Below the pieces are notes generated by a model. It did not search any database. It saw only the letters and a program-made list of their open reading frames with translations, and was not told the origin of the DNA. A DNA stretch of 64,000 nt, from assembly GCA_011816565.1 (NCBI GenBank), contig GCA_011816565.1_3614.1, one strand, 5' to 3'. Numbering within the stretch: position 1 is the first letter of the stretch; each line of letters starts with the position of its first letter. The DNA comes from a phage. The position numbers and the translations under genes were made by a program. Shown here piece by piece: positions 51,225 through 64,000 of this stretch.

Positions 51225-51253
51225 TATTTTAAGTTATCAGGTTGCCAGAGATC

Positions 51254-51712
51254 AGGAGGATTTCTAAAATGGATTTCCTCCTTTTGATATTTTACCTGCC
51301 AGGATATTTTAAAATCCTTAGAAAATCAGAAAATGGATCGAAAACTAAAATGGATTTTTCAGAGTAGGCGCGACAAGCTGAATCACTCATCCTACCGTTT
51401 GCACCATATTCCAGACCACCATTATAGATTTCCCGCACATGCTTACATCTCGCTACTAGAACTTCCTCCACTTACCCTTGACCTTTTATAGCAATAATCC
51501 AACCACTATCTTGAAGTTGCGGTGCAGCTTTCCAGGTACTCGATCTGTTTTTCGTTTCAAAGATTGAATTTTCTGAAAATTTTTCTCGATAAATTTCTCA
51601 GTACTCGATCTGTTTTTCGTTTTCTGAATCGGATTTTCTGGAAATCGCTCCGGCTCTTGGCCTAAAATTTTTGGGGACGAAATCGATTTTTCGTTTTCAG
51701 AAATGGATTTTT
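51254..51712. repeat. AT-rich iteron-like direct repeat region
   Basis: Three copies of (GTAC)TCGAT(CTG)TTTTTCGTTTTC at about 51536, 51601 and 51681, each with TTTTCTG(A/G)AAAT; at least four copies of (C/A)AAAATGGAT; hairpin AGGAGGA...TCCTCCT at 51254-51282. Confidence 0.55.
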
Positions 51713-51830
51713 AAAATTTCTATACGGGAATATTTTATGGGATACTGTTTTATAGGAAATTGTTACGGAGGGTAATTAGCGTGCTAATTAAATTTATTAA
51801 ATGCGAGGAGTTCTCATTTAGAATTTTGAA

Positions 51831-52034
51831 TGATAATCATTCTCGTTTGCAGAATAACGGGCAGGCCCGGTGATTGTCTCCCGGCCCCTACTGCCCCGGC
51901 TTGTTATTATAGTAACACACAGGACAAAGAAAGCAAGAAGTTTTTGCATAAATTTTTAGACGATAATGATAATCGTTCTCATTTCATGCAGCGCCCATCC
52001 CCGGTGGTTGTCTCCCCCGTCACCGGTGCCTGCC
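51831..52034. repeat. GC-rich structured repeat (two tandem units)
   Basis: Units at about 51831-51890 and 51967-52020 share TGATAATC(A/G)TTCTC...CCGGTG(A/G)TTGTCTCCC; 5' GGCAGGCCCGGTG and 3' CACCGGTGCCTGCC are complementary. A shorter inverted copy lies at 60983-61025. Confidence 0.5.
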
Positions 52035-52058
52035 GTCCTTTCGATAGGTATATTTTGC

Positions 52059-52198
52059 CACCTGGCGGGGCCGCTGTCAACACTTTTCAAAAAAAAATTC
52101 TAACCTGATGCGCTGACCGCTGCAACCTGGCGGGGCCAGCCTGGCAGGGCCTAACTGACCAGGTAGGAGAGAATGAAGGCTTGCAAACCTGGTGGGCC
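52059..52198. repeat. direct repeats of ACCTGGCGGGGCC
   Basis: CACCTGGCGGGGCC (52059), CAACCTGGCGGGGCC (52123), AACCTGGTGGGCC (52186); a fourth variant lies inside the next small ORF. Confidence 0.45.
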
Positions 52199-52239
52199 TA
52201 TGCTATAGGATAGGTAACAATTGAAGAGGAGGTACAAAA

Positions 52240-52416
52240 ATGGAAGGTAATATGATCCCCCTGGAAAATGTAGCTATTAATGACGCTGAGGCTATCGCCC
52301 TGGTTGAAAAGGCTATGGCGGGAGCGTTGGAACATAAAGAAGAGTACGAAAAAATGATGGTTAACCTGGCAGGGGCGGCGGCTGGAGAATTCCGCCCAAA
52401 AAATAATTTTAACTAA
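52240..52416 (+). CDS. hypothetical small protein (58 aa; not in ORF track)
   Basis: ATG 7 nt after GAAGAGGAGG; stop overlaps the next track ORF start. Confidence 0.35.
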   Translation: MEGNMIPLENVAINDAEAIALVEKAMAGALEHKEEYEKMMVNLAGAAAGEFRPKNNFN

Positions 52417-52502
52417 TGGTTGACAGCTCGGACAGTTCTTGTTATTCTTATCCTCGCAAGGTGAACAACACCACACTAATTAACAGAGAGGATAAAAAAA
52501 TC

Positions 52503-52700
52503 ATGAACGCCTACGGAATCAAAGTACGTCGCAACGCTCGCCAGGTGGTCACCGATCAAATGGTTTGCCAGGTGGACGTAACCATCAACAACGGGCAAGG
52601 CCTTTATAAATTCCGTCGCGGTCAGAGCTATACCCGGCACCAACTTAATCGTTGCGCCCTGACAAAAGGTCAGATCAATCACTGGTTTAATAAAAAATAA
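52503..52700 (+). CDS. hypothetical small basic protein
   Basis: Start at ATG after GAGAGGATAAAAAAATC; the track ORF start at 52416 lies in a TTGACA-N17-TATTCT promoter-like sequence. Confidence 0.4.
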   Translation: MNAYGIKVRRNARQVVTDQMVCQVDVTINNGQGLYKFRRGQSYTRHQLNRCALTKGQINHWFNKK

Positions 52701-52703
52701 GTA

Positions 52704-52732
52704 TTGACATATAGTCCGACACCAAATACACT
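52704..52732 (+). promoter_or_regulatory. sigma70-like promoter (TTGACA-N17-TACACT)
   Basis: Upstream of 52765. Confidence 0.45.
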
Positions 52733-52764
52733 AAAAGCACAAAAGACACTAAGAGGATAAAATC

Positions 52765-53163
52765 ATGAAAACCACTACCTTTAATTTTGATAATGCAGAC
52801 TTTTCTTTTTCTGATGTCAAGAACTGCCGCCGTGATCGTGGATTTTACAAGGCTTATAATCTGGTGGGCCTGGACGATGACAATAATTTGCACGAAGTAG
52901 CTGAGATCCGGTATTATGCCGCCGCCAGCGGGAACACTTACTACTGCGTTTTTTGGATACACGACAACAAGAACAATAAGTACGGCTATACTGGCGGCAA
53001 GGCGAGCGGTCACGGTTATGATAAAGCTAACGCAGCACTTGAGAGCGCATTAAATGCTATGGGGATCACTGCCAACGGCTGGATCTACGAAGAAGAGTTT
53101 TTGTCAGCACTTGCTGACCACCTAGGCTATAAAAAGCACATTGTAACATGTGCCCACGAATAA
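52765..53163 (+). CDS. hypothetical protein
   Basis: 132 aa with RBS (AAGAGGATAAAATC). Confidence 0.5.
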   Translation: MKTTTFNFDNADFSFSDVKNCRRDRGFYKAYNLVGLDDDNNLHEVAEIRYYAAASGNTYYCVFWIHDNKNNKYGYTGGKASGHGYDKANAALESALNAMGITANGWIYEEEFLSALADHLGYKKHIVTCAHE

Positions 53164-53212
53164 AAAAAAAATTATTGACACGCTGCAAAATTCAAGTAAA
53201 CTAGACACAAAA

Positions 53213-53231
53213 GGCGGGAATGTTTCCCGCC
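53213..53231 (+). other. 5' leader hairpin GGCGGGAA-TGTT-TCCCGCC
   Basis: GC-rich inverted repeat between promoter and RBS of 53251; near-identical hairpin at 55764 and related ones at 53897 and 56479. Confidence 0.5.
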
Positions 53232-53250
53232 AGCACAAAGGAAAAAGATC

Positions 53251-53655
53251 ATGAATAAGAACGTACGCCGCATCATGAACGAGTTGGCAAACGATGAAAA
53301 AATTATTGACATGCATTTGATCAACATTTGCCGCCGTTGTGTAACATATAACAACCGCGCCGCAAAAGCGCGTGAGATGAACGCAAAAGGCACCTTAAAG
53401 CCATTCCAGGTGGTGGTAAAGGCCATTAAAGATGTAACTAATACGGCAAACCAGGTACAGGGGAACACCAACGAGAGTACCAATATTGATCCGGCTTACA
53501 TCATGAAACGGATCCGGACCTGCAAGAACAAAGAGCAAGTGTATAATATCATAGACTGGTTGGATTCTATGGGCGATGTGGTTTACAATAGGTTTTCTGC
53601 AGCTATCGAGATCCAGCTTGACAGGTTGGACGGTAAAGTACTGAAAACTTACTAA
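53251..53655 (+). CDS. hypothetical protein
   Basis: 134 aa with leader hairpin and RBS. Confidence 0.5.
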   Translation: MNKNVRRIMNELANDEKIIDMHLINICRRCVTYNNRAAKAREMNAKGTLKPFQVVVKAIKDVTNTANQVQGNTNESTNIDPAYIMKRIRTCKNKEQVYNIIDWLDSMGDVVYNRFSAAIEIQLDRLDGKVLKTY

Positions 53656-53703
53656 GTTTATTTTTAGATGGCCTTGACTTCAGGGCCATCAATAAAGTAA
53701 ACT
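53656..53703. repeat. 48-bp intergenic hairpin repeat, copy 1
   Basis: GTTTATTTTTAGATGGCCTTGACTTCAGGGCCATCAATAAAGTAAACT; stem GATGGCC/GGCCATC with TTGAC in the loop. Confidence 0.55.
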
Positions 53704-53856
53704 AATCTCAACTAAGCGAAAAAATGGGGCTTTAAGATGAGCACTACACGCCAATACACAAAGGTAACTATTATCGTTTGCGTTGTCGGTTACATCCTGG
53801 CGCAAATGTTAATGAGTAGCGCTAACAGTTTTGCAAAATTTTTCTTAAATTTTTAA

Positions 53857-53884
53857 TTGACAAACTAACTTAGATCGATATACT
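53857..53884 (+). promoter_or_regulatory. sigma70-like promoter (TTGACA-N16-TATACT)
   Basis: Upstream of 53936, followed by leader hairpin GGGAA-AAC-TTCCC. Confidence 0.45.
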
Positions 53885-53935
53885 TAAACACGTAAACGGG
53901 AAAACTTCCCAGAGCACACAAAAGGAGAAAACACC

Positions 53936-54277
53936 ATGACTACTATGACCGCCGCAGAAAAAGCTATGCAGATCGCCGCGCTGAAAAAACAGATCGCAGA
54001 CCTTGAGAACAAGATCGATAACTTTGAAATCGACGAGGACAAGTACGACGAAAACTATGATGAATGGTTAGACGAGATCTACGGCGAAATTATGATCGGA
54101 AACATTTCTTTTCTTCCGTCGCGTATCCTCAAGGAGCTAGATCCTATCGCTTACCGCTGCGGATTTAGCGACTACATCGACAGCCTGGATATTGAGGAAG
54201 ATGAAGAATACCAGGAACTACAGACAGAGTTAGAAGAAGCAAAAGAAGAGCTTGCGGAGCTGGAAGAAAACGAGTAA
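53936..54277 (+). CDS. highly acidic small protein
   Basis: 113 aa, very rich in D/E (DNFEIDEDKYDENYDEWLDEIYGE...LDIEEDEEYQELQTELEEAKEELAELEENE), coiled-coil-like N-terminus. Confidence 0.5.
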   Translation: MTTMTAAEKAMQIAALKKQIADLENKIDNFEIDEDKYDENYDEWLDEIYGEIMIGNISFLPSRILKELDPIAYRCGFSDYIDSLDIEEDEEYQELQTELEEAKEELAELEENE

Positions 54278-54278
54278 G

Positions 54279-54325
54279 ATTATTTTTAGATGGCCTTGAC
54301 TCCAGGGCCATCAATAAAGTAAACT
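54279..54325. repeat. 48-bp intergenic hairpin repeat, copy 2
   Basis: TTATTTTTAGATGGCCTTGACTCCAGGGCCATCAATAAAGTAAACT directly after the stop at 54277. Confidence 0.55.
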
Positions 54326-54366
54326 TTATACTGTTAACACTGAACTAATTCAGAGGAGTTAAAACC

Positions 54367-54612
54367 ATGGCAGCACTAATCACCAAATATTATGCCCCTA
54401 CCAACACCAAAAGCGCCCGTATCATGGTAAAAGGTTTCGGACGTAAAAAGGTTTACACCTGGGATTATGCCTTAGACACGGAAGACAACTACACCAACGC
54501 AATGACCGATTTTATTAATGATCTGAACACGCGGATCTTGACAAATTATAAAATTACCGATATTGCCTATATAGGGGAAGGCGGGATCTGTTTTGTCGGT
54601 ATCGTCAAATAA
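54367..54612 (+). CDS. hypothetical small protein
   Basis: 81 aa with RBS (GGAG); followed by a degenerate copy of the hairpin repeat (54613-54660). Confidence 0.45.
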   Translation: MAALITKYYAPTNTKSARIMVKGFGRKKVYTWDYALDTEDNYTNAMTDFINDLNTRILTNYKITDIAYIGEGGICFVGIVK

Positions 54613-54687
54613 GCTGTTTTTTCGGTGGTCCTGGTAGCAGGGCCATCTATAAAGATAGTTTATCAACACAATGAAAGGAGAAAGTAC

Positions 54688-55041
54688 ATGATCAGCGGGG
54701 CAAGTTTTATTATTGGCGCTATTGCTACGGCTTTAATTGTAAACAAGATCCAATCTAAAAACGAAAAAGAGAGCAACGCGCTCACAGAATACCCATTTTG
54801 GGTATTCAACGACAATGAAGACTACATTATCAAGTACAAGAATGAGAAGGGCGACCAGGTAACACCGCGACCGATCCCAGCTTACAAGATGCAAGAAACA
54901 CTATACCGCCTAAAGGCTGGAGGCGCAAAAATCGTAGACTTTTGGGGATATGATTGCAAGGATCAGGAGGTTATAAAGCGCCGTATCCGGGCTATTCAGG
55001 CCAATATTGAAGTTAGCAAGGGGGGAATATATGAAGATTAA
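54688..55041 (+). CDS. predicted membrane-anchored protein
   Basis: Start at ATG after AAAGGAGAAAG (track ORF from 54625); N-terminal TM segment (ISGASFIIGAIATALIV). Confidence 0.45.
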   Translation: MISGASFIIGAIATALIVNKIQSKNEKESNALTEYPFWVFNDNEDYIIKYKNEKGDQVTPRPIPAYKMQETLYRLKAGGAKIVDFWGYDCKDQEVIKRRIRAIQANIEVSKGGIYED

Positions 55042-55228
55042 TTTTGAGAAGATTGTAAAGCGATCTCATGATTCCAAAGAGCTGCCGGAACGACGCCAGC
55101 GCAACAATAAACTGAATAAGCCAAAAAGATTTGGGAAGATCTGGCGGAATCATTATGATCGTAAATTGCCGGGCCTACTTTTGGAACGTGAACGACAGGC
55201 GGAACGATACCGCCACAAAGGCAAATAA
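55031..55228 (+). CDS. hypothetical small basic protein
   Basis: Start at ATG after AAGGGGGG (track ORF from 55007); Lys/Arg-rich. Confidence 0.4.
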   Translation: MKINFEKIVKRSHDSKELPERRQRNNKLNKPKRFGKIWRNHYDRKLPGLLLERERQAERYRHKGK

Positions 55229-55236
55229 CAACCAAC

Positions 55237-55264
55237 GCCCCGCCATTGTGCGGGGCTTTTTTAT
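55237..55264 (+). terminator. rho-independent terminator
   Basis: GCCCCGC-CATTGT-GCGGGGC hairpin followed by TTTTTTAT. Confidence 0.6.
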
Positions 55265-55410
55265 TTCTATCCTACGAATATCGCCCCTGGTTGGCCCTGT
55301 AAACGCCATAAAAGCCCCTACCTATGCAATCCCCTTTCTTAACCTGAAAACAGCGTCTAGGGCCGTTTTATGGCGTTAAAAATGTTATTGACAGTGATTT
55401 TATTTAAAGC

Positions 55411-55439
55411 TTGACACCTTGGAATAGTCCGGATATACT
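55411..55439 (+). promoter_or_regulatory. sigma70-like promoter (TTGACA-N17-TATACT)
   Basis: Second of two TTGACA hexamers upstream of 55475. Confidence 0.45.
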
Positions 55440-55474
55440 GACCACATCAAAGCAAGAAGGAAGGAGTAAACGCC

Positions 55475-55735
55475 ATGCGTAAATTGAAAAATTTTGATAA
55501 GGTAGATGTAGTACTGAATAATTTTTACTACTGCAATAATAAAGCCGTTTGGTGGCGTGATAGTTCCACCGATAAAGTTAAGGCGCGCTTTCTCCAAGGG
55601 CACTGGCAAAGCCGTCCAGTGATTAAAATCTTGGGGCAATTGGTAGCGTTTAAAAATTGCCGCCGTGTTGACGACGTTGAAGAGATCTTGAACATTTTGC
55701 GCCACAATAATTTAAAAAATAGTGTTGACAAGTAA
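55475..55735 (+). CDS. hypothetical small protein
   Basis: 86 aa with RBS (GGAAGGAG). Confidence 0.45.
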   Translation: MRKLKNFDKVDVVLNNFYYCNNKAVWWRDSSTDKVKARFLQGHWQSRPVIKILGQLVAFKNCRRVDDVEEILNILRHNNLKNSVDK

Positions 55736-55752
55736 ATCTCAATAAGTATAAT
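55725..55752 (+). promoter_or_regulatory. sigma70 consensus promoter (TTGACA-N16-TATAAT)
   Basis: Followed by leader hairpin GGCGGGAAAACTTCCCGCC (55764-55781) and RBS of 55810. Confidence 0.55.
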
Positions 55753-55809
55753 TAAAAACACAGGCGGGAAAACTTCCCGCCACTAACAAAGAAAACAGGA
55801 GAAAATATC

Positions 55810-56433
55810 ATGACCACCGTTAACATTACCACAGGTTGCAATTTATCTTTCGACGTGCTGACCGACGAACAAAAAGAAAAAGCTATTGAAATGGTCCGCG
55901 AAAGAGAAGAACACAGCGGAGAGGATTTTTTCGCAGAAAGTGTAATTGAATATTATAAAGAGCAAGTTTTTCCAGAGTACGGCCTTGAAGATACCGATGT
56001 ACATTGGTCCGGCTTTTGGTGCCAGGGTGACGGCGCGTCAATCAGTGCTGAAAACGTGGATTTAGAAAAATTCTTGCGTAAAGTAAAGGCCCTGACCAAG
56101 TTCCGATCAATTCGTCACTTGTTTGGCACAATGCATGATGGCGAGTTATCAGCCAGTATTGAACGCGACAAGTACAGCCATTACAGCCATGAAAACACTG
56201 TAAGCGGATACATTGATACCACCTGGCTAGATCTGACCGCCAAACAAGAAAACAAAGTGGAAGACCTGGAAGAGCTGATCACCGAGACGGTACGGGAGCT
56301 ATCCCGCAAGGTTTACGTAGACCTGGAGGAGGCCTATCTAGAACAGTTCACTACCGAAAACCTGATCGGCCTTATTGAGGCCAATGATTGGCGGTTTGAT
56401 GTGGATGAATATGGAGAGATGAGTTTTTCATAA
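55810..56433 (+). CDS. hypothetical acidic protein
   Basis: 207 aa; promoter, leader hairpin and RBS (AGGAGAAAA) upstream. Confidence 0.55.
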   Translation: MTTVNITTGCNLSFDVLTDEQKEKAIEMVREREEHSGEDFFAESVIEYYKEQVFPEYGLEDTDVHWSGFWCQGDGASISAENVDLEKFLRKVKALTKFRSIRHLFGTMHDGELSASIERDKYSHYSHENTVSGYIDTTWLDLTAKQENKVEDLEELITETVRELSRKVYVDLEEAYLEQFTTENLIGLIEANDWRFDVDEYGEMSFS

Positions 56434-56522
56434 ATAAAGTGTTGCAATAATCTAAAAACTTGCTATATTAAAACTCAAGGGGGCAAGACGTTTGCCCCAC
56501 ACAAAACAAAGAGGAAAACATT

Positions 56523-56903
56523 ATGAAAAACACTACTAAAGCTATTGACACCGTTATGTTTAACCTGGTTACCTTTCGCGAGGATATGAAAGATCTTCCA
56601 CGTGAAACAGTGTGCGATCACATTGAAAACTATCGCAAACTAATCAAAGAGTTGCCTTTAAAACGTGACCAGTATGCGGCTAACGCTATGCTCAACGCCA
56701 TGATCAAAAAGATGATTCAGTGTGATTTAACCCTGGCCTATGATTATGCAGGTGGTCGTTTTGCAGTATACAATCAGCCCGTGCCTGGTATGGGCACCAC
56801 CAAAGAATTGCACGCGCTCAATCTAAAACAAGACGTGTGGGATAGTATGCCCCGCGTGGTGGTGTGGGCAGAAAGCGGAAAGATTTACGGCGATAATTTT
56901 TAA
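56523..56903 (+). CDS. hypothetical protein
   Basis: 126 aa; TTGCAA-N17-TATATT promoter-like sequence and leader hairpin GGGGCAA-GACG-TTGCCCC upstream. Confidence 0.5.
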   Translation: MKNTTKAIDTVMFNLVTFREDMKDLPRETVCDHIENYRKLIKELPLKRDQYAANAMLNAMIKKMIQCDLTLAYDYAGGRFAVYNQPVPGMGTTKELHALNLKQDVWDSMPRVVVWAESGKIYGDNF

Positions 56904-56967
56904 TCAGGTAACAGGCGGCATATTTGCCGCCTTATTGTTAAACAGAACTGCAAAAGAGGTACATAGA

Positions 56968-57339
56968 ATGGAATTTATTATTTTGGCCGTATTAGTTTCC
57001 TTGTTTAACGCCTGGATCGCTGGCAAGATGGGTAGATCCGCCTTTTTATGGTTTATTATATCTATTTTCCTGGGGGTGGTTGCAACTATTGTACTTGTTA
57101 TCCTTGCAATTGTTGACAAAGGCGATAATAGAAAGGGTAAAGTATTTTCCGACCTGTATGACGCGCAAACATTTGTCAACGCCTATTATAGTGATCTTCC
57201 AGTCTCCCTACGCTGCAGCCTTGCACAACAGGTTTTCGATGAAGCTAAAACCAGAGATCACGCCCATGAGATTTGTTTAACTGAGGCGGATCGCCTATTT
57301 GAGAGGAATAGAAAATATGTGGGCCAGCCGTTTAAATAA
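56968..57339 (+). CDS. predicted membrane protein
   Basis: Start at ATG after AAAGAGG (track ORF from 56935); two hydrophobic helices (FIILAVLVSLFNAWIAG; LWFIISIFLGVVATIVLVILAIV). Confidence 0.45.
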   Translation: MEFIILAVLVSLFNAWIAGKMGRSAFLWFIISIFLGVVATIVLVILAIVDKGDNRKGKVFSDLYDAQTFVNAYYSDLPVSLRCSLAQQVFDEAKTRDHAHEICLTEADRLFERNRKYVGQPFK

Positions 57340-57562
57340 TACCACGTTAATTAATCCCTTTGATGAAGATTTGAAGCCAGCCGCCTGGCGTGATGGATTC
57401 AATAACGAACGCTTTATTTTCAGGCCTGATCTTAAGGAATTTTATAACAATGGATCGAACAACGACAGAGATAATTTTTCTTGTGATGTGCGTGGTGATG
57501 GTACTCCTGGGGGCCATTGTAAACCACGTCACTACTACCAGGATGAAAGGGGGAGACGATGA
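57317..57562 (+). CDS. hypothetical small protein
   Basis: Start at internal ATG after GAGAGGAATAG (track ORF from 57299). Confidence 0.35.
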   Translation: MWASRLNNTTLINPFDEDLKPAAWRDGFNNERFIFRPDLKEFYNNGSNNDRDNFSCDVRGDGTPGGHCKPRHYYQDERGRR

Positions 57563-57678
57563 CAACCAAGGATAAGCCCCGCACCGATAAGGTGCGCCGG
57601 GTTATGGTATGGCTTGAGATCATCGCCTTTGAAATATTGTTAGGCGTAGGGATGTATTTTATCGCTGTAAGTAACTGA
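57559..57678 (+). CDS. hypothetical small membrane peptide (39 aa; not in ORF track)
   Basis: ATG overlaps upstream stop (ATGA); hydrophobic C-terminal half; followed by terminator. Confidence 0.25.
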   Translation: MTTKDKPRTDKVRRVMVWLEIIAFEILLGVGMYFIAVSN

Positions 57679-57682
57679 TAAC

Positions 57683-57713
57683 GGCCCCCGATCCCTGGGG
57701 GCCTAACTTTTTC
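57683..57713 (+). terminator. rho-independent terminator
   Basis: GGCCCCC-GATCCCT-GGGGGCC hairpin followed by TAACTTTTT. Confidence 0.55.
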
Positions 57714-57818
57714 AAAAAATTTTTCTTCCGGGGTGTTGCAATCCGGTCCGAAATATGGATAATAATAATCAACGGGGAGCTAATCCCCACCAACACAAAA
57801 ACAGAAAGGAGAAACAAA

Positions 57819-58019
57819 ATGAGCAACAATATCCGCGTTATTAACTTCAAAAAAGAAGAAAAAATTGCCGTGCTGATTGACGGTCAAGAAATCTTCAAGG
57901 GCTATTATGAAGATCATCAAACTGCGATTAGTATCACTCGCGTGATCGGTTACCATAATTTCTACCCCCAAGGCGCTGAGGCAGCAGTTAAACGAATCAA
58001 AGAGATTGTAGGCCTGTAA
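57819..58019 (+). CDS. hypothetical small protein
   Basis: 66 aa; TTGCAA...ATATGGATAATAA promoter-like sequence and RBS (AAAGGAGAAAC) upstream. Confidence 0.45.
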   Translation: MSNNIRVINFKKEEKIAVLIDGQEIFKGYYEDHQTAISITRVIGYHNFYPQGAEAAVKRIKEIVGL

Positions 58020-58068
58020 ATTTATTTTTAGATGGCCTTGACGCCAGGGCCATCAGTAAAGTAAATTT
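58019..58068. repeat. 48-bp intergenic hairpin repeat, copy 3
   Basis: TTTATTTTTAGATGGCCTTGACGCCAGGGCCATCAGTAAAGTAAATT directly after the stop at 58019. Confidence 0.55.
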
Positions 58069-58111
58069 TAATCGTGGTAAAATAACACGCAGTTAACAAG
58101 GAGTGATAAAC

Positions 58112-58411
58112 ATGTTTATCCTGGCTAATAATCTTTATTTCTTTGATGGTCAGATCGTAGACGGTGTGGAAGTGGAGATCACTGGGTGCCCTGGTGGTCA
58201 GGCTATGACTTTTCGGAATAATGCCTTTGATGATTCTCATATCGTTATGAGAATGGAAGTTACAAAGCTGGACGACAAGAAAACGCTCATTGACTATTCC
58301 GTGAAAGATCATCCAGACTACCACATGATCTATGGTGATTTGTGCATTGTTGACCGTGACAAGGTGGGCGGCATTGTGATCGCTATTGTGAACGATGTTT
58401 TCTCTGTATAG
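58112..58411 (+). CDS. hypothetical protein
   Basis: Start at ATG (track ORF begins at an upstream GTG, 58103) after AAGGAG. Confidence 0.45.
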   Translation: MFILANNLYFFDGQIVDGVEVEITGCPGGQAMTFRNNAFDDSHIVMRMEVTKLDDKKTLIDYSVKDHPDYHMIYGDLCIVDRDKVGGIVIAIVNDVFSV

Positions 58412-58471
58412 TTCCGGCAAATGATGCAAAATAAGGCCCCTAGCAGGGCCTGCAGCGATATAATCACATAA

Positions 58472-58503
58472 AGGCTATGCGGTTGCATGGCCTTTATTAT
58501 TTT
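58472..58503 (+). terminator. rho-independent terminator
   Basis: AAGGCTATGC-GGTT-GCATGGCCTT hairpin followed by TATTATTTT. Confidence 0.5.
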
Positions 58504-58636
58504 GGCGTTACAGCGGCCTCCAAGGCACTTAAAAATTTTTTAAAGAAGTACTTGCATCAAGCCCTACAATATGGATAATAAGAGTTGTCGAGGGGGGTTA
58601 TGCCTCCAATCATTAACAGAAACAGGAGTTAAAACC

Positions 58637-58921
58637 ATGGCTATTGTTACCGCTGGCGATGTAGTAAAAATGGAAGCGAAGTATTTAAAAGCTGGTATGC
58701 ATATCATCCGCAATGATCTTGAACTGGTCCTCACTATGGTTGATTATAACCCTGGTCAAGATTATCCAAGCATCGACTACTTTTTTGAGTATGTTGATGA
58801 AGAGTTGAAAGAGGATGAGGCCTATTGCGGTGAGTTCTGCAACTTCTTTTGTCCTGATGAGGTTGTAAAGGTTATCTATCAACCTGGCGTACCTTTCCCG
58901 CTACACGCTATCAATAAATAA
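58637..58921 (+). CDS. hypothetical protein
   Basis: Start at ATG after ACAGGAGTTAAAACC (track ORF from 58571); conserved leader as in neighbouring genes. Confidence 0.45.
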   Translation: MAIVTAGDVVKMEAKYLKAGMHIIRNDLELVLTMVDYNPGQDYPSIDYFFEYVDEELKEDEAYCGEFCNFFCPDEVVKVIYQPGVPFPLHAINK

Positions 58922-58976
58922 ACCGGGCGGGGCCGAAAAGGCCCCCAATTATGAAAATAAAGAGAGGCAAATCATC

Positions 58977-59210
58977 ATGATGGAACAAATTAAACGCGCC
59001 GAGGCTATTAATGGCAACGTGATCTATTTTGTCAGCAAAAACGAAAAAGGCGTACCATATGCGGCAGTAATAGTACAACCTGACGGCGATTATTGGTTTA
59101 CTGTGTACGGCGCTTATTCTTTTGGGCGTCCAGTGCATGATAAAATTTTGAAAGTAGCGAACCCTACCGGGAAGAATATCACAGCAGAAAAATTTTTTGA
59201 AAATAGTTGA
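58977..59210 (+). CDS. hypothetical small protein
   Basis: 77 aa with RBS (AAGAGAGG). Confidence 0.45.
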   Translation: MMEQIKRAEAINGNVIYFVSKNEKGVPYAAVIVQPDGDYWFTVYGAYSFGRPVHDKILKVANPTGKNITAEKFFENS

Positions 59211-59234
59211 CATGACCATATAAGACTGTAATAT
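59207..59234 (+). promoter_or_regulatory. sigma70-like promoter (TTGACA-N16-TAATAT)
   Basis: Overlaps the 3' end of 58977-59210; upstream of the 59286 small ORF. Confidence 0.45.
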
Positions 59235-59285
59235 ATAAATCAAAGGGGGCAACGAACCCCACCAACTACAAAGAGGATAAAAATC

Positions 59286-59465
59286 ATGGCTATTATTGCA
59301 AAGACTGAGATCGTAGGCTTAGATTCTATTCTCCTCGCATATGAGGAAGCTATAGAAATGTATGTGGTTTCCTATGGTGAGTATATCCGTGAATATAAAT
59401 CTATTGATCTGGCTTTTGAATGTTATATCCGCCAGGTTAATAAAGCGTACGATGATTATCGTTAA
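59286..59465 (+). CDS. hypothetical small protein (59 aa; not in ORF track)
   Basis: ATG after AAAGAGGATAAAAATC, same leader style as neighbours. Confidence 0.35.
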   Translation: MAIIAKTEIVGLDSILLAYEEAIEMYVVSYGEYIREYKSIDLAFECYIRQVNKAYDDYR

Positions 59466-59552
59466 AATAGTTTGACAACAGCCATCTTACAAAGCATAAT
59501 ACATAAGGCGGTGGAATGGTCCGCCACCTGGAACAAAGAAGAGGTAAACACC

Positions 59553-59798
59553 ATGAAAAGCAATAAAGGTTATAACGGTTACAAAAACAAAACTCATTGG
59601 AATGTAAGCCTTTGGATTAATAACGATGAGTCATTGTACCGGTTGGCCCAAGACTTTATTAACGCCAATGCTAATCGTAATGATGCGGCGCGGGATATGA
59701 TGCTTTTTCTGGAGCTAACCGGACAAGATAAGACCCCGGACGGCTTCAAGTACAGCACTACGGCGATCCGTGCCGCGATGGTTGGAATGAAACACTAA
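59553..59798 (+). CDS. hypothetical small protein
   Basis: Start at ATG after AAGAAGAGG (track ORF from 59472 begins at the TTG of a TTGACA promoter hexamer). Confidence 0.45.
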   Translation: MKSNKGYNGYKNKTHWNVSLWINNDESLYRLAQDFINANANRNDAARDMMLFLELTGQDKTPDGFKYSTTAIRAAMVGMKH

Positions 59799-59875
59799 AA
59801 GCACATAGCCGCCTTACCCTGGGGCTGTGGTAGCGGCCCCATGAATAAGGTTACTAACAGAAGAGAATAAACACC

Positions 59876-59980
59876 ATGAAACAGAAATTAATCGATGCAG
59901 TGATCTTGGTTATTGTCCTGGGTATCGGCCTGATTGCAACCATGGCTAATGTGATCTTGTCTTCCAACGGTATCGGGTGA
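59876..59980 (+). CDS. hypothetical hydrophobic peptide (34 aa; not in ORF track)
   Basis: ATG after AGAAGAGAATAAACACC; mostly hydrophobic (AVILVIVLGIGLIATMANVILS). Confidence 0.25.
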   Translation: MKQKLIDAVILVIVLGIGLIATMANVILSSNGIG

Positions 59981-59989
59981 GGTTGGCAA

Positions 59990-60205
59990 ATGATCACTAA
60001 CAAAACAGGCAAAACAGAATTTTTACGCAACTTACAGATCGGCAAGCCTGAGATCTGGCATTGCACTAAAACACCACGGGACGAAATGAAAGACTTCACC
60101 GCCACGCTACAACGGGTAAAGATATCTATCACGCAGAAAAAGGCCTTACTAGTGGTGGAAGGGGAGATCCCCCAAACCGTTGTTATAGTTGAGCGTACAG
60201 CATAG
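59990..60205 (+). CDS. hypothetical small protein
   Basis: 71 aa with RBS (GAGG); preferred over the antisense ORF 59854-60246. Confidence 0.4.
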   Translation: MITNKTGKTEFLRNLQIGKPEIWHCTKTPRDEMKDFTATLQRVKISITQKKALLVVEGEIPQTVVIVERTA

Positions 60206-60296
60206 TTTAATTTATACCGATACCCGAAAATTAACCGACAAAGCATAAACAGGCGGTTACCGCCGCCTTAAACGTAGCAGAAAGAGGATGGACACA

Positions 60297-60581
60297 ATGA
60301 AAAAGATGATCGCAGTGGTTGCCCTGGTTGTTGGACTTAATGCGCCTGTAATGGCTAAAGAGCTGGCAAAAGAGGTTAATCTAACGGATATTCATGCCGT
60401 CAATCAAATCGGGGTTACTTATCGCTTATGCCTTGCCGCTAAAACTTTTAAGGACGGCACAACAGAGTACTACGGATTCGAGGGTATCCGGTGCGGTGAG
60501 CTTGCTCGCGACCTTAAGGAAGATCCAGACCTGGAGGATCTGCCCATAACCGTGAACGGGAAAACTTACGTGAACCGTTAA
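60297..60581 (+). CDS. small secreted protein (signal peptide)
   Basis: Start at ATG after GAAAGAGG (track ORF from 60288); N-terminal signal peptide (MKKMIAVVALVVGLNAPVMA). Confidence 0.45.
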   Translation: MKKMIAVVALVVGLNAPVMAKELAKEVNLTDIHAVNQIGVTYRLCLAAKTFKDGTTEYYGFEGIRCGELARDLKEDPDLEDLPITVNGKTYVNR

Positions 60582-60583
60582 CC

Positions 60584-60718
60584 ATGAGAAAGATAATTAT
60601 CACCTTGGGGATTGTGGTGGCAATATTGGCGCTCTTTCCCCTTATGGTTAGATATGTACTGATCGGTATTGTCCTGGCAGTCAGTGATCTATTGGAAACG
60701 GTTGGCACCTTGTTTTAA
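60584..60718 (+). CDS. hypothetical membrane peptide (44 aa; not in ORF track)
   Basis: ATG 3 nt after upstream stop; predicted single/double TM (IIITLGIVVAILALFPL...LIGIVLAV). Confidence 0.25.
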   Translation: MRKIIITLGIVVAILALFPLMVRYVLIGIVLAVSDLLETVGTLF

Positions 60719-60730
60719 AGAGCGGTAAAA

Positions 60731-60922
60731 ATGAATATCGAACAAGTCAGAAAGGTATTGGCGGTACTGCGTTATCATAATCATAGAAAGGTCATAGACG
60801 ATCCTGATTATGTCGATTCAAGCCTGGAAGGGGATACACTACAAGCCATAAGCAACATGCAAGAATTGCTAAAGCGCATGACAGAGAAAAACCGACCGGA
60901 CTACATAGGCGAAAAAATATAA
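60731..60922 (+). CDS. hypothetical small protein
   Basis: 63 aa; followed by terminator. Confidence 0.4.
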   Translation: MNIEQVRKVLAVLRYHNHRKVIDDPDYVDSSLEGDTLQAISNMQELLKRMTEKNRPDYIGEKI

Positions 60923-60936
60923 TATTTATAAACTAC

Positions 60937-60968
60937 AAAACAGGGCTTGCAATGGTCCTGTTTTTTGT
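60937..60968 (+). terminator. rho-independent terminator
   Basis: AAAACAGGGC-TTGCAATG-GTCCTGTTTT hairpin followed by a T-run. Confidence 0.5.
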
Positions 60969-60982
60969 TATACTTGTTTCAC

Positions 60983-61025
60983 GGCAGGCACCTGGCGACG
61001 GGGGGAGACAATCACCGGGCCTGCC
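60983..61025. repeat. GC-rich element, inverted copy
   Basis: GGCAGGCACCTGGCGACGGGGGGAGACAATCACCGGGCCTGCC; its reverse complement joins the 5' part of the 51860 unit and the 3' part of the 52001 unit. Confidence 0.5.
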
Positions 61026-61050
61026 TGTCATATAAGAACTATAAAAACCG

Positions 61051-61079
61051 TTGACATCTGCCATGGGGTGGGGTAACAT
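61051..61079 (+). promoter_or_regulatory. sigma70-like promoter (TTGACA-N17-TAACAT)
   Basis: Upstream of 61134. Confidence 0.4.
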
Positions 61080-61133
61080 TTATCTTGAAGGGGCAAAAGT
61101 ACCCACACAACAACCAGAAGAGAGGAAAACACT

Positions 61134-61406
61134 GTGTCAAGCTGGATTAATCAAGAAGTAGAATCACGTTTTAATGCTATCTGGGATCTCATCGAAAAAG
61201 AGGACGGAACATCAAGCCCCTACCTCAACAATTTGGAATTCCATTTTGTGGAAGCGATGAACGCAGAACATGATCACGAAGGTGGCGCGGATGATTTCGC
61301 TAAAGGTTATGGCTTTAACAATGCCAACGAAATGATCGAGGCGGTCGTACTCCAGGCTGAGGAAGATTATCAATTAAAAACGCTTGAATTCTGCCGCCAT
61401 AAGTAA
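61134..61406 (+). CDS. hypothetical acidic protein
   Basis: GTG start after AGAGAGGAAAACAC; 90 aa. Confidence 0.45.
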   Translation: MSSWINQEVESRFNAIWDLIEKEDGTSSPYLNNLEFHFVEAMNAEHDHEGGADDFAKGYGFNNANEMIEAVVLQAEEDYQLKTLEFCRHK

Positions 61407-61466
61407 TAAGATAATGACACGGGCCAAAAGGCCCACTAATCAGAACCGCATAAAGAGGTAAACATC

Positions 61467-61730
61467 ATGAAACGTCTTGATCAGCTCAAACTAGTTCAGT
61501 ACATGGCCTACAAAGTTCTTGAAGTCCAAAAAGGTAGCAAAAAAGAGGTTTGCGAGAAAGCATATAAGATCTTTACCCGTAAAAAAGATGATTGGATGTT
61601 ACGCCAGACCAAAAAAGCCGATATCCTGGGGTACCTGGAAGAAGAGATCCGACTTGAAGAGCAAGAAGAGATCCGCCGCAGTGAAGCAGATTATCAGGCA
61701 GCTTGGGAAAACTGGATGAATAACAAATAA
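61467..61730 (+). CDS. hypothetical protein
   Basis: 87 aa with RBS (AAAGAGG); preferred over the overlapping frame 61519-61719. Confidence 0.45.
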   Translation: MKRLDQLKLVQYMAYKVLEVQKGSKKEVCEKAYKIFTRKKDDWMLRQTKKADILGYLEEEIRLEEQEEIRRSEADYQAAWENWMNNK

Positions 61731-61797
61731 TACAACAAGTTACATGGTCAGGGGGTAATAAAGCCCCTTGATCACATAAAAATTATGCTATCCCTGG

Positions 61798-61826
61798 TTG
61801 ACAGGGATCGGCAGTTTTGCTATATT
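61798..61826 (+). promoter_or_regulatory. sigma70-like promoter (TTGACA-N17-TATATT) with palindrome over -35
   Basis: CCCTG-GTTGAC-AGGG palindrome spans the -35 hexamer. Confidence 0.5.
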
Positions 61827-61875
61827 CTTTTTTGAAGGGAAGTTGTAAGAAAATTAACTAAGAGGTAAAAACACC

Positions 61876-62295
61876 ATGAACATCAAATCTAATAATCCGG
61901 CATATAGCTTTGATAACGCTTTTTGTCACGGTCCGGCGGCGAAAGGATTCGAAATCGATGGTAAACTAATTATTGTCAATGTTGACGGGGAAGAGGTTGC
62001 AGTATATCCGGTGGCAGACGTAAAAAGCCGTTTACAATGCCGCATTGATGTTACCGCCTATCAGCTTGATCCGGTCCGCATAGTTGCCCTGGTCCTGGAA
62101 GAAGAAATTAAAGCCATGCACCATAGCAACAGGTTTATTGGTGACGCTCAGGACAATATGAAGGTGTGCCGCCATAAAGTTAATGAAGTGCTTAAAGAAT
62201 ACGGCTTTAAAGATCTGATGATCAAACGTGAGGAAAAATTCCGCTACCGTAACGACCTGGCAAATCGGATTTTTGAAATATACGAATCATTATAA
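61876..62295 (+). CDS. hypothetical protein
   Basis: 139 aa with RBS (AAGAGG); last gene of the small-gene array; followed by terminator. Confidence 0.5.
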   Translation: MNIKSNNPAYSFDNAFCHGPAAKGFEIDGKLIIVNVDGEEVAVYPVADVKSRLQCRIDVTAYQLDPVRIVALVLEEEIKAMHHSNRFIGDAQDNMKVCRHKVNEVLKEYGFKDLMIKREEKFRYRNDLANRIFEIYESL

Positions 62296-62313
62296 TTTTT
62301 AACTGAATTATCA

Positions 62314-62338
62314 AGGGGCCTTAGCCCCTTTCTTTTTG
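62314..62338 (+). terminator. rho-independent terminator
   Basis: AGGGGC-CTTA-GCCCCT hairpin followed by TTCTTTTTG. Confidence 0.6.
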
Positions 62339-62947
62339 TCTGCTCTTCCCCCTACCATAAACGGCCCTACCTGACAAGTGGAATAATTGACGAGCCATCA
62401 ATCCCGCACACTGTACAAATATACATGTAAAATAGTTATTGCATAACCTTTCATTGTGTGGTAGCAGGGCTATTTTTACCCGTTTTCCCTTCCAAAATTG
62501 CACGTAATGCCGCTATTGCACAAATTTTAACCTGATGCAGATCTTCAATATCTTGTCAACAAGTAAAAATTCTTATAAGTCATACACTTACACAAACTAA
62601 AAAGCGTGTTCTACGCGAAAAATCGAGTATAACTATAGCCGCCAGATCTCAGAATTCACGTACGCACGCCATTCTATAGCCTGCAAAGTATTTATTCCAA
62701 CCACAGAATAACGGAATAGCCAATACCTGCATAAAATAATTATTCGTGTAAACTGCATAACATAAATCAGCTCAGGTGTCAACATTTTTCGTAAACAGTC
62801 CGAAATTATCACGATGAGTTATCATAAACAGAGAAATCTTTAGTCGTCTAATGTTTACTGTACATTACTATACTGACTGGAATCATTAGATGACTAAGAG
62901 AAAGATAAGAAATAATTAATAATGTGATTATTTTACCTGTAACAATA

Positions 62948-63172
62948 AGGCAACTATGCAAACGAATGGCATGGCGCGACGGAGTCGCGACATAATATAA
63001 AAGCAGTAACCATCACCCCCGTGATAGTTTGTCTGCAAACTATTAATCAGATCATAGTTGCCTTGTATTTAGTTAATCATGACATAACAAGCAAGGCAAC
63101 TATAGATCTGCTAATAGTTGCCCTGCTTTTATATTATGTCATAGGAACGCCCGAAGGGGTGACCTAGTCACC
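62948..63172. repeat. palindrome/inverted-repeat cluster in AT-rich non-coding region
   Basis: ATAGTTTG-TCTG-CAAACTAT palindrome (63024-63043); AAGGCAACTAT/ATAGTTGCC in both orientations (62948, 63054, 63093, 63112); inverted pair CGCGACATAATATAAAAGCAG (62986) / CTGCTTTTATATTATGTC (63123); GGTGACCTAGTCACC palindrome (63158); ATGCAAACGAATGGCATGGC direct repeat (62956, 63230). Confidence 0.55.
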
Positions 63173-64000
63173 TGGCATAGCCAGCGAAAGATTATTAACT
63201 TGTCGATTGTTATCTTGTTAATTGTTTTCATGCAAACGAATGGCATGGCTTATCATCTATGCGTGAACAGTGAGGCATGCAATAGTAACAATTGTTATTG
63301 TATCCAGTGTGTTGAGTATGCCCAGTGTGTCACTATTATGTCATATTATGTCACAGTATGTCAGACAAGTTTTTCTCCTCTTTGTCAAGTGCTGCATGAA
63401 AAATTTACAAGCTTGTATGGTAGCATTTTTGCGGCCCTGTTTACATTCAGTAGTGTATGTATAATCCTTGTTGTGTGGGCGTTTAGACGTCTAGACGGTT
63501 GGAAGTCCACAGGTCAATATCTAATCTATCGGCTGCTAACTATATCCCACACAAATAGTAAGAAATATGATTGTTATATGCGTAAACTGTAACTCATGTT
63601 ATCAATCCCTGTATGGATCGCCAGTGGTGCGCATAATGGGTATTATGTTAAATTGCCAGTAATGATAACTATTCTCACAATGATAGGTATTCTCATTCAC
63701 TCCCACAAGATAGGTTGCAAATGTTGTGCCACTGTGTGAACGGCCTCACCTATTAATTTGCCTCACTGCCTCGATATTTGAGAATTGTTATAAGAATGAG
63801 AAGTATTCCCATTTCGTCCGCCTGGCAGCACTCCAGTCGCTACCGGCTCCTGACAGGGAGGCACTCCTGTTGGTCAGGTCAAAATCGGGGTAGAACTGGG
63901 CCTGTTCAGATATTTCTGGCTGACGCTTCAGGTCTGTGTGGGAAAAGACAACCTCCCCGACGGGGCAGGGGGGTGTCTGCTGGAAAATTGCAGGTCAATT

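Follow-up and report, generated by a model that had tools for sequence, protein, structure and literature searches.

We analysed a 64,000-nucleotide (nt) stretch of phage DNA, contig GCA_011816565.1_3614.1 of GenBank assembly GCA_011816565.1 (the window), and found that the spaces between the small genes at positions 52240-62295 are occupied by composite cassettes of promoters and hairpins. Our preferred explanation, which we hold with moderate confidence from sequence comparison, is that these intergenic regions resemble the promoter-early stem-loop (PeSL) cassettes of T4-like phages, that they are driven by host sigma70, and that the hairpin of one cassette type (class A) serves as a 5′-terminal, mRNA-stabilising stem-loop. 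The feature itself is real and clearly non-random. Comparison of related genomes demonstrates, at the level of sequence, the motifs, their conservation, their confinement to the region and their role as points of exchange.

The region is 97.1% identical to Escherichia phage JES2013 and 96.8% identical to phage navn, both of the genus Vequintavirus (rV5-like myophages), and it has matches in 292 phage records altogether. The first 25 kb of the window hold the tail-fibre and baseplate genes of the same Vequintavirus phages. The array consists of 29 co-oriented genes on the + strand (g1 to g29; 34-207 amino acids), identified as open reading frames (ORFs) with Shine-Dalgarno (SD) sites; an earlier note on this DNA had counted about 25. 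JES2013 is annotated here with 29 coding sequences as well, all as hypothetical proteins.

Promoters of the array

Between 52100 and 62300 we found 11 sigma70-type promoter sites scoring at least 10 of 12 on the + strand and one on the - strand. Shuffling with dinucleotides preserved, repeated 300 times, gave 1.9 such sites on average (standard deviation 1.4, maximum 6), and therefore the promoter signal is far above chance and strand-specific. The hexamer TTGACA occurs 16 times on the + strand and four times on the - strand of the region, where 3.3 occurrences are expected. A site scoring at least 10 of 12 lies directly upstream of 10 of the 29 genes, and about five further genes have a site scoring 9 of 12 (53674, 54296, 56442, 57736 and 58038). 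The remaining genes, about 14, have no promoter site and are overlapping, closely packed or read-through. The seven promoters that the earlier note had named (52704, 53857, 55411, 55725, 59207, 61051 and 61798) were all recovered as TTGACA followed by a spacer of 16 or 17 nt (N16 or N17), with scores of 10-12 of 12; its statement that almost every gene has its own promoter was too broad, as promoters serve about half of the genes.

Nine of the promoters had been predicted before, in phage rV5 in 2013 (P195A, P195, P194, P192, P186, P185, P174, P168 and P164; Kropinski et al., 2013, Virol J 10:76, Table S4). These nine are orthologous, in order, to the sites at 52420, 52704, 53175, 53857, 55411, 55725, 59207, 61051 and 61798.

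Four of the strong sites are promoter-only, all with an N17 spacer: TTGACA-N17-TATTCT at 52420-52448 (P195A), TTGACA-N17-TACACT at 52704-52732 (P195), TTGACA-N17-TATACT at 55411 (P186; 55389-55439 when the orphan TTGACA at 55389 is included) and TTGACA-N17-TATATT at 61798 (P164). The last belongs to an element at 61750-61826 that opens with the hairpin AGGGGgtaataaagCCCCT, and its -35 hexamer lies inside a hairpin of 7 base pairs (bp), ATCCCTGgttgaCAGGGAT (61790-61808). The promoter before g27, TTGACA-N17-TAACAT at 61051-61079 (P168), had a candidate leader hairpin at 61090, which we rejected as it folded no better than shuffled sequence (z = +0.3).

Class A leader hairpins

In class A cassettes the order of elements is an A/T-rich tract, TTGACA or TTGCAA, an N16 spacer, the -10 hexamer, about 10 nt, a GC hairpin, a CA-rich leader, an SD site and ATG. 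A leader hairpin after the -10 was found in seven of the 29 genes (g4, g6, g11, g12, g16, g20 and g21), fewer than the earlier note had implied. The spacer is N16 in six of the seven cassettes and N17 in that of g21, and the gap between the -10 and the hairpin is 10-11 nt in five (g4, g11, g12, g16 and g20), 13 nt in g6 and 6 nt in g21. Fold energies were calculated one sequence at a time, with z-scores against shuffled sequence.

The four best leader hairpins, with z-scores of -3.0 to -5.4, precede g11, g4, g12 and g16. The g11 cassette (55725-55781) has the consensus promoter TTGACA-N16-TATAAT (P185), then 10 nt and the hairpin GGCGGGAAaacTTCCCGCC (55763-55781; -14.6 kcal/mol, z = -5.4), and the g4 cassette (53175-53231) has TTGACA-N16-TAAACT (P194), 10 nt and the hairpin GGCGGGAAtgtTTCCCGCC (53213-53231; -14.6 kcal/mol, z = -3.4). 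Before g12 (56442-56498) stand TTGCAA-N16-TATATT, 10 nt and GGGGCAAgacgtTTGCCCC (56480-56498; -12.5 kcal/mol, z = -3.2), and before g16 (57736-57788) TTGCAA-N16-GATAAT, 10 nt and GGGGAgctaaTCCCC (57774-57788; z = -3.0). The other three fold less stably relative to shuffled sequence: the g20 cassette at 59207-59260 (TTGACA-N16-TAATAT, P174; 10-11 nt; GGGGcaacgaaCCCC; z = -2.0), the g21 cassette at 59472-59528 (TTGACA-N17-CATAAT; 6 nt; GGCGGTGGaatggtCCGCCACC; z = -1.6) and the g6 cassette at 53857-53910 (TTGACA-N16-TATACT, P192; 13 nt; the weak hairpin GGGAAaacTTCCC at 53898-53910; z = -1.0). The hairpins that had been pointed out near 53213, 55763 and 56480 are thus present (-12.5 to -14.6 kcal/mol, z = -3.2 to -5.4), with loops of 3-5 nt in place of the 4 nt proposed. 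The stereotyped leader described before also holds in most genes, as a CA-rich stretch, AGGAG or AGAGG, an A-rich spacer and ATG.

Behind the class A hairpin the CA-rich spacer measures 12-20 nt, and the ribosome site is unpaired in the folds. Upstream of the hairpin a C7-A8 step after the -10 is conserved in most copies across three genera, in which the hairpin begins 6-14 nt after the -10, most often 10-12 nt. We looked on the + strand for a U-tract directly after class A, class B (described below) and hairpin-only stems and found none, the tails being A/C-rich (for example AGCACAAAGG, ACTAACAAAG and ACACAAAACA); the lack of a U-tract rules out the class A hairpins as + strand terminators. 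Folds of the nut or put type were considered as well. The class A elements are single short stems when tested against the two-hairpin folds of nut and put, and an antitermination RNA of the lambdoid nut (boxA/boxB) or HK022 put kind was rejected, since the loops are the most variable columns (see below) and are even inverted between relatives. Rfam returned no credible family, either for the whole window at gathering thresholds or for 51000-64000 in a scan by E-value.

Class B hairpins, terminators and hairpin-only spacers

A second cassette family, class B, is absent from the earlier note, as are six terminators and a set of hairpin-only intergenic regions. Class B is a repeat of about 49 nt that begins at the upstream stop codon, TTTATTTTTAGATGGCCTTGACnnCAGGGCCATCAATAAAGTAAACT. 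Its fold (-24 to -28 kcal/mol) has an A/U lower stem of 10 bp, a small internal loop and an upper stem of 10 bp; the putative -35, TTGAC, lies at the loop and the putative -10, TAAACT, in the lower stem. Three near-identical copies stand before g5 (53655-53703; TTGACT in the loop region, TAAACT in the lower stem; -28.4 kcal/mol, z = -5.4), g7 (54277-54325; z = -3.8) and g17 (58019-58067; z = -4.4). Two diverged copies, before g8 (54613-54659; z = -3.9) and g22 (59806-59856; a different sequence; -25.3 kcal/mol, z = -3.1), keep the two-tier fold and have neither TTGAC nor another -35. The z-scores run from -3.1 to -5.4 over all five copies and from -3.8 to -5.4 over the three strong ones. The copies before g8 and g17 are annotated as terminators in phage Murica.

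Intrinsic terminators, consisting of a hairpin and a T-run, were found on the + strand at 55237-55266 (GCCCCGCcattgtGCGGGGC, then TTTTTTATTT), 56913-56940 (weak), 57683-57713, 58468-58497, 60937-60972 (AAAACAGGGCTTGCAATGGTCCTGTTTT, then TTGTT) and 62313-62340, where the last one closes the array. Those at 56913, 57683, 58468 and 62313 are orthologous to the rV5 terminators t184, t181, t177 and t164, which had already been predicted (Kropinski et al., 2013, Table S4). Two terminators enclose genes 13-15, which have no promoter, so that some read-through must occur.

The hairpin-only spacers number four. The hairpin AGGCCCctagcaGGGCCT at 58434 is followed by the t177 ortholog in one element (58434-58507), and GGGGCCgaaaaGGCCCC before g19 (58929-58945) is accompanied by neither a promoter nor a T-run. 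The third, AGGCGGttaccgCCGCCT before g24 (60251-60268), has its loop inverted (CGGTAA) in two relatives. The fourth, before g28 (61421-61466; z = -2.9), combines the hairpin GGGCCaaaaGGCCC with the leader ACTAATCAGAACCGCATAAAGAGG.

Conservation and confinement of the cassettes

To follow the cassettes among related phages we aligned the seven class A cassettes over the window and 12 relatives (13 genomes, 3-15% diverged). The mean pairwise difference per column was 0.006 in the -35 hexamer, 0.044 in the -10 hexamer and 0.042 in the stem; it was 0.100 in the spacer, 0.088 in the gap between the -10 and the hairpin, and 0.187 in the loop. The stem is less variable than the loop (p = 4e-6) and than spacer-type columns (p = 0.005), and the hexamers are likewise less variable than spacer-type columns (p = 7e-6). 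Nearly all ortholog variants still fold, the changes being loop replacements, altered lengths of the G-run and C-run and a few stem changes that preserve pairing. The variable loops argue against a protein that reads the loop. A search of IMG/VR with the gene 11 protein yielded eight loci, two of them Vequintavirus, which were too few for covariation analysis, and GenBank phage records were used in their place.

For class B, TTGAC is nearly invariant in orthologs of the three strong copies, whereas the two loop bases that follow it differ freely. An RNAalifold consensus of 21 class B sequences contained eight weak pairs only, since MAFFT set the degenerate copies out of register.

We asked whether the arrangement is specific to the array by scanning both strands of the window and of JES2013 60000-105300, the other arm dense in sigma70-type promoters (about 109 kb in all), for a GC hairpin starting 5-14 nt after the -10. 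Such a hairpin accompanies four of 11 strong promoters inside the region and two of 87 elsewhere (Fisher p = 0.0012). The sole clear class A-like site outside the array lies at about 96813 in JES2013 (TTGACA-N17-TATCAT, 8 nt, hairpin AAAGAGGGtttggttCCCTCTT), before a gene annotated as 'sigma 54 modulation factor', a homolog of ribosome hibernation factors. In the same sequences a class B profile search found no copy outside the array. In IMG/VR the exact class B motif occurs in Vequintavirus contigs only, and the 121 GenBank phage records that have it are likewise all Vequintavirus and typically carry three copies apiece.

Two loops are inverted between relatives while their stems are unchanged: TGT/ACA at 53221-53223 in the g4 leader and TTACCG/CGGTAA at 60257-60262 before g24. 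Such inversions read as the mark of template switching or of cruciform-type inversion at palindromes.

Cassettes as points of gene exchange

A blast comparison with the 12 relatives located 11 indel or replacement sites inside the 10 kb, and junctions were resolved in detail for all but three of them. At least six events have their junctions inside cassettes and share 9-46 nt. In 241Ecol014PP, which is without gene 7, the spacer between g6 and g8 is a chimeric class B element formed from both flanking copies, the left crossover partner being the copy at 54277-54325. In YP-6, without gene 11, the class A promoters on either side were joined by a crossover at their -35, within A(A/T)AGTGTTG, and in a relative from IMG/VR an insert of 540 nt sits exactly between the TTGACA copies at 55389 and 55411. 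Replacements in the g20-g26 zone start at the TTGACA of the g20 or the g21 cassette (AAAATAGTTGACA), and that of 241Ecol014PP has its right junction at the terminator at 60937. O157 typing phage 14 carries an extra gene between g27 and g28, on both sides of which the leader of the g28 element (61421-61466) is duplicated. The loss of gene 29 in 241Ecol014PP corresponds to a crossover between the hairpin at 61750 and the terminator at 62313, both of which are GGGG...CCCC hairpins. Where a junction falls is weak evidence by itself; more weight attaches to the 9-46 nt shared at junctions and to the chimeric cassettes. Together with the finding that the same cassette types stand before different genes in other genera (see below), these junctions support the proposal that reusable cassettes favour modular shuffling.

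Related cassettes in other genera

In the small-gene array of the Justusliebigvirus EmilieFrey, GC hairpins are promoter-proximal in eight of 11 cases, mostly with N16 spacers, and the stems GGCGGGAAAtggTTTCCCGCC and GGCGGTGGaatagcCCACCGCC resemble those of the array. The Avunavirus Av-05 has the same promoter-hairpin layout. EmilieFrey also has homologs of g12, g20 and g21, which stand behind different cassettes there. In YP-6 and 241Ecol014PP the gene found in place of g20 has a promoter-hairpin cassette closely matching cassettes of EmilieFrey, and by blastn this 86-nt cassette occurs at 596 places in 154 phage records, with up to nine per genome. Its carriers are mainly Phapecoctavirus and Justusliebigvirus, and also Vequintavirus, Klebsiella phage ZCKP1, Serratia phage KKP_3264 and Pectobacterium phage phiTE; among the matches listed there were no T4-like phages.

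Some observations on individual sequences accompany these results. Av-05 has two cassettes (9341-9366 and about 13590) in which the -10-like hexamer TAGAAT lies in the loop of a 9-10 bp hairpin (TATGCCGTGatagaatgCACGGCATA). The protein of g20 (59286-59465) is 95% identical to that of a Justusliebigvirus gene, and g12 (56523-56903) is 65-69% identical to Justusliebigvirus and Avunavirus genes. Gene 11 (55810-56433) has homologs in Av-05, about 67% DNA identity with the jumbo phages PBECO4 and SHEFM2K, and distant relatives in IMG/VR. We rejected the hairpin GGCGGGAAnnnTTCCCGCC as a recognition motif of its own, since loops vary freely and the 115 IMG/VR stretches that contain it mostly use it as an ordinary terminator. 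Promoter-proximal copies of GGCGGGAAnnnTTCCCGCC without a T-run are found mainly in contigs of this phage group, including a Vequintavirus contig and two of about 150 kb.

More than 20 GenBank records (MG0656xx; 'Campylobacter phage C2, C5, C9, A112b' and others) are 95-97% identical to Escherichia coli Vequintaviruses over the region, and some MG0656xx records of 'Campylobacter jejuni' phages match Phapecoctaviruses instead. Probably either the Campylobacter host is mislabelled or samples had been mixed.

Possible roles of the hairpins

If the intergenic regions are PeSL-like cassettes, unmodified host sigma70 RNA polymerase would transcribe the array from about ten strong and five weaker promoters, and the six intrinsic terminators would split it into roughly six units. 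Early expression of the array is plausible, because the promoters match the host sigma70 consensus. Transcription would start at the conserved C7-A8 step after the -10, and the class A hairpin would then lie at about +4 of the transcript, a placement derived from the predicted -10 alone. About 3 unpaired nt would precede the stem, because the usual start is 7-8 nt after the -10 and the hairpin begins 10-11 nt after it. Work in the Belasco laboratory is said to have found that protection by a 5′ stem is lost once several unpaired nucleotides precede it. In E. coli both RppH and RNase E require single-stranded 5′ ends, and therefore 5′ structure stabilises mRNA (PMC3997798). In the same manner the class A stem-loop would shield the transcript from 5′-end-dependent decay by these two enzymes, while the CA-rich spacer would keep the ribosome site open; the leader hairpin probably stabilises the 5′ end of the mRNA. 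For class B and hairpin-only elements any action would be on read-through RNA, where roles as attenuators, as 3′-end or processing signals (3′-end protection, RNase III cleavage) and as obstacles to RNase E scanning are all possible.

Several points weigh against this explanation. Four strong promoters (52420, 52704, 55411 and 61798) lack a leader hairpin, and two class A hairpins are weak (g6, z = -1.0; g21, z = -1.6). No single mechanism covers every hairpin, because the hairpin-only elements (58929, 60251 and 61421) and class B are not 5′-terminal unless the RNA is processed. At 3-15% divergence there are few true compensatory changes, though the conservation is still informative. As for exchange, recurrent indels of +364 nt (58404-58424) and +354 nt (60923-60963) show no cassette homology, and junctions inside cassettes are partly unavoidable, because the intergenic DNA is short and nearly filled by cassette elements. 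Finally, our literature search on rV5-, phi92- and phAPEC8-like phages found no data on transcription starts, timing or half-lives.

The hairpins might instead be attenuators or terminators of upstream transcription that limit the pile-up of expression, a role put forward at first for PeSL stem-loops, so that their position relative to the start is incidental. We consider this unlikely, although several observations fit it. PeSL stem-loops cut lacZ expression about as much as the rrnB T1 terminator does (PMC2839356), the annotators of Murica called two class B copies terminators, and GGCGGGAAnnnTTCCCGCC is mostly followed by a T-run in IMG/VR and is thus used as a terminator there. Class B and hairpin-only elements, moreover, can act on read-through RNA only. 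However, the class A hairpins are followed by A/C-rich sequence and no U-tract, the array already has six separate terminators of the hairpin-plus-T-run kind, and attenuation leaves unexplained why the hairpin keeps so tight a distance from the -10, which is 10-11 nt in five cassettes and 6 or 13 nt in the remaining two.

Another alternative concerns class B, whose five copies place a 10-bp helix, an internal loop and another 10-bp helix between cistrons, an arrangement that resembles an RNase III processing site structurally only. Class B may resemble the R-sites of the T7 early region. RNase III would cut the polycistronic early RNA into single-gene mRNAs at these sites and leave a protective 3′ hairpin, the hexamers being secondary or fortuitous. 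The dimensions suit this proposal (two stems of about 10 bp around a small internal loop, about 20 bp in total, directly after the stop codon), and the degenerate copies at 54613 and 59806 keep the fold without TTGAC. In the strong copies, however, a near-invariant TTGAC next to two freely varying loop bases fits a -35 constraint, and Rfam gave no match; this too we hold to be an unlikely explanation.

A bolder extension of the mRNA-stabilising role starts from a protein encoded at 22912-23955 on the - strand (347 amino acids), next to a divergent promoter pair at about 23950. It contains an Srd-like domain; its best PHROG match is labelled HNH endonuclease, and weaker matches are labelled 'decoy of host sigma70' and 'Srd anti-sigma factor'. 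It is the homolog of rV5 gp11 (Kropinski et al., 2013), and Srd of T4 stimulates RNase E on host mRNA (PMC4980113). If the phage protein did likewise, the hairpin at +4 could be a self-mark that spares phage early mRNAs from Srd-boosted RNase E, within a portable promoter-hairpin-leader module shared across the rV5-, phi92- and phAPEC8-like subfamilies. We offer this as a speculation with a rather small chance of being right; if true, any gene captured into such a shared plug-in module would be strongly transcribed early, immune to nucleases and provided with an open ribosome site.

Less probable again is that the palindromes act in DNA, either as operators for a dimeric phage regulator that shuts early promoters or as cruciform or recombinase targets that drive cassette exchange. 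Inverted repeats of 7-10 bp bracket the class B -35 with high identity between copies, the loop inversions at 53221 and 60257 indicate that palindromes sometimes fold or switch template in DNA, and the authors of the PeSL work raised a specific DNA-binding protein as a possibility. Against such a role, pairing persists in the degenerate class B copies and in the class A stems despite their different sequences, a pattern better suited to a structure than to a site read by its sequence; we identified no candidate regulator, and crossovers occur at the A-rich -35 block and at leaders as often as at hairpins. That the leader hairpins are functionless, as terminator leftovers of pasted promoter-gene modules or as reverse-strand terminators against antisense transcription, is highly improbable: for three class A hairpins an A-run ahead of them on the + strand does give a terminator-like score on the - strand, and the same hairpin sequence often serves as a terminator in other viruses, but the stems vary less than loops and spacers, the offset from the -10 is held within 6-14 nt (mode 10-12) in three genera, and the region has a single promoter-like site on the - strand.

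Gene products and flanking DNA

All 29 products match PHROG families of unknown function, and two pass the Pfam threshold: g9 (T7 gp1.1 family) and g21 (DUF7249). Gene 9 (55031-55228) encodes a very basic protein of 65 amino acids (isoelectric point (pI) 11, 34% lysine plus arginine; PF08200, E = 3.8e-10). The classes listed in the earlier note, namely acidic proteins, small membrane peptides and one secreted protein, are recognisable: g6 is acidic (pI 4.1, 31% aspartate plus glutamate), g11, g18, g20 and g27 have a pI near 4.4, small hydrophobic peptides are encoded by g5, g13, g15, g22 and g25, and g24 is the sole product with a signal-peptide-like N-terminus. A sequence search of the PDB with four of the larger proteins (g3, g6, g11 and g29) found no relative. 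The labels 'DNA translocase FtsK' (g28), 'Rel homology domain' (g29) and 'LTXXQ motif' (g11) given in relatives were set aside, as Pfam does not support them at E <= 0.01. We looked in PHROG and Pfam for a tie to host takeover among the 29 products and found none; such a role is a reasonable guess from the position of the array and the type of its promoters.

The start of gene 2 may need correction. The long ORF call of 52416-52700 (94 amino acids), used in navn, contains the promoter P195A (52420-52448), and a shorter start at ATG 52503 (65 amino acids) follows AGAGAGGATAAAAAAATC; several relatives annotate gene 2 as a 198-nt gene. Because the promoter sits within the longer ORF, gene 2 probably starts at 52503 and not at 52416.

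Immediately upstream of the array is a gene-poor stretch of 1 kb (51230-52240). It holds a 52-nt unit in three copies (51529, 51594 and 51668; spacing 65-74 nt) and the repeat pairs 51829/51965 and 51866/52000, about 135 nt apart, and YP-6 and 241Ecol014PP have a 751-nt insert at 51205-51303. The conserved core CCCGGTG(A/G)TTGTCTCCC occurs on the + strand at 51866-51882 and 52000-52016 and, inverted, at about 60997-61013, between the terminator at 60937 and the promoter at 61051, where this third site lies within a long hairpin (CACGGCAGGC...GCCTGCCTGTC).

In the rV5 paper the array is the distal end of the transcription arm '10-1-238-164', which leads into a non-coding block where two arms converge (Kropinski et al., 2013). 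The corresponding block runs from 62300 to 64000 and beyond the window, with converging gene arms and iteron-like repeats, and the navn map has - strand genes beyond the non-coding gap. Within the block, ATAGTTGCC occurs in both orientations (about 62950-63130), a perfect 20-nt ATGCAAACGAATGGCATGGC occurs at 62956 and 63230, ATTATGTCA occurs three times, and an 18-nt perfect inverted repeat lies at 62989/63123. The GenBank records of several relatives begin in or near the block, which is a candidate for an origin, a packaging site or a genome terminus.

Comparison with known systems

The promoters had already been published and the cassette concept is established in T4-like phages; the architecture is real but largely expected. 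The rV5 predictions share with ours the orthologous promoter and terminator sites. They differ in giving hexamers only; leader hairpins, class B, cassette families and the link to gene gain and loss do not appear in Table S4 or in the portions of the text accessible to us (Kropinski et al., 2013). Our literature search, outside which many subscription papers fell, found no description of leader hairpins or cassettes in rV5-, phi92- or phAPEC8-like phages.

Two further systems are similar in part. The 5′ stem-loops of ompA and papA (PMC3997798) share a stable hairpin a few nt from the predicted 5′ end, followed by an unstructured leader and a ribosome site; in the array, however, the 5′ ends are predicted and the stems are short, generic GC stems without homology to the ompA leader. 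The T7 early region is likewise a small-gene array with structured RNA between genes, and g9 belongs to the T7 gp1.1 family. T7, however, has three promoters at one end and processing between genes, whereas the array has many internal promoters and terminators.

The cassettes bear on several practical matters. The rV5-, phi92- and phAPEC8-like phages are among the commonest isolated therapeutic coliphages, and their early genes are almost all of unknown function. Exchangeable cassettes explain the gene-by-gene mosaicism between near-identical isolates. They give annotators predicted transcription starts and corrected gene starts, as for gene 2, and they mark natural safe sites for the insertion or deletion of genes in phage engineering. 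They are also compact natural modules for studying the effects of 5′ hairpins on mRNA stability.

The closest known system is that of the PeSLs of the T4-like phages RB49/phi1, T4/PST and KVP40/nt-1 (Arbiol et al., 2010, PMC2839356; Comeau et al., 2014, PMC4122927). A PeSL joins an A/T-rich tract, an early promoter of the sigma70 type and a G/C stem-loop, and five subclasses are distinguished by where the stem-loop lies. PeSLs cluster in hyperplastic regions and are mediators of indels and replacements as well as of mini-circles. All sequence-level features that define PeSLs are found in the array cassettes (promoter, stem-loop, A/T tract and SD, variable location, junctions). Both are composite intergenic modules that run from the upstream stop codon through an A/T-rich tract, a sigma70-type promoter and a G-run/C-run stem-loop to an SD site and start codon; both lie in variable regions rich in genes without known homologs, and in both the indel and replacement junctions of close relatives fall inside cassettes. 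PeSL subclasses have counterparts with the stem-loop over the -35 (class B, P164), over the -10 (the TAGAAT-in-loop cassettes of Av-05) and downstream of the -10 (class A). The differences are of four kinds. The array cassettes belong to Vequintavirinae and Stephanstirmvirinae and not to the T4-like lineage; the likeness is one of architecture, PeSL being a functional class. The class A hairpin stands at a near-fixed offset after the -10, most likely within the transcript at about +4, whereas PeSL stem-loops most often overlap the -10 or lie between the two hexamers. Class B differs in being a long hairpin of two tiers. Promoter and terminator activity and mini-circles have been demonstrated for PeSLs, whereas the array cassettes are known from sequence. 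With these differences, our results extend the PeSL idea beyond T4-like phages, and therefore suggest that composite promoter/stem-loop cassettes are a general route by which large lytic phages trade accessory genes.

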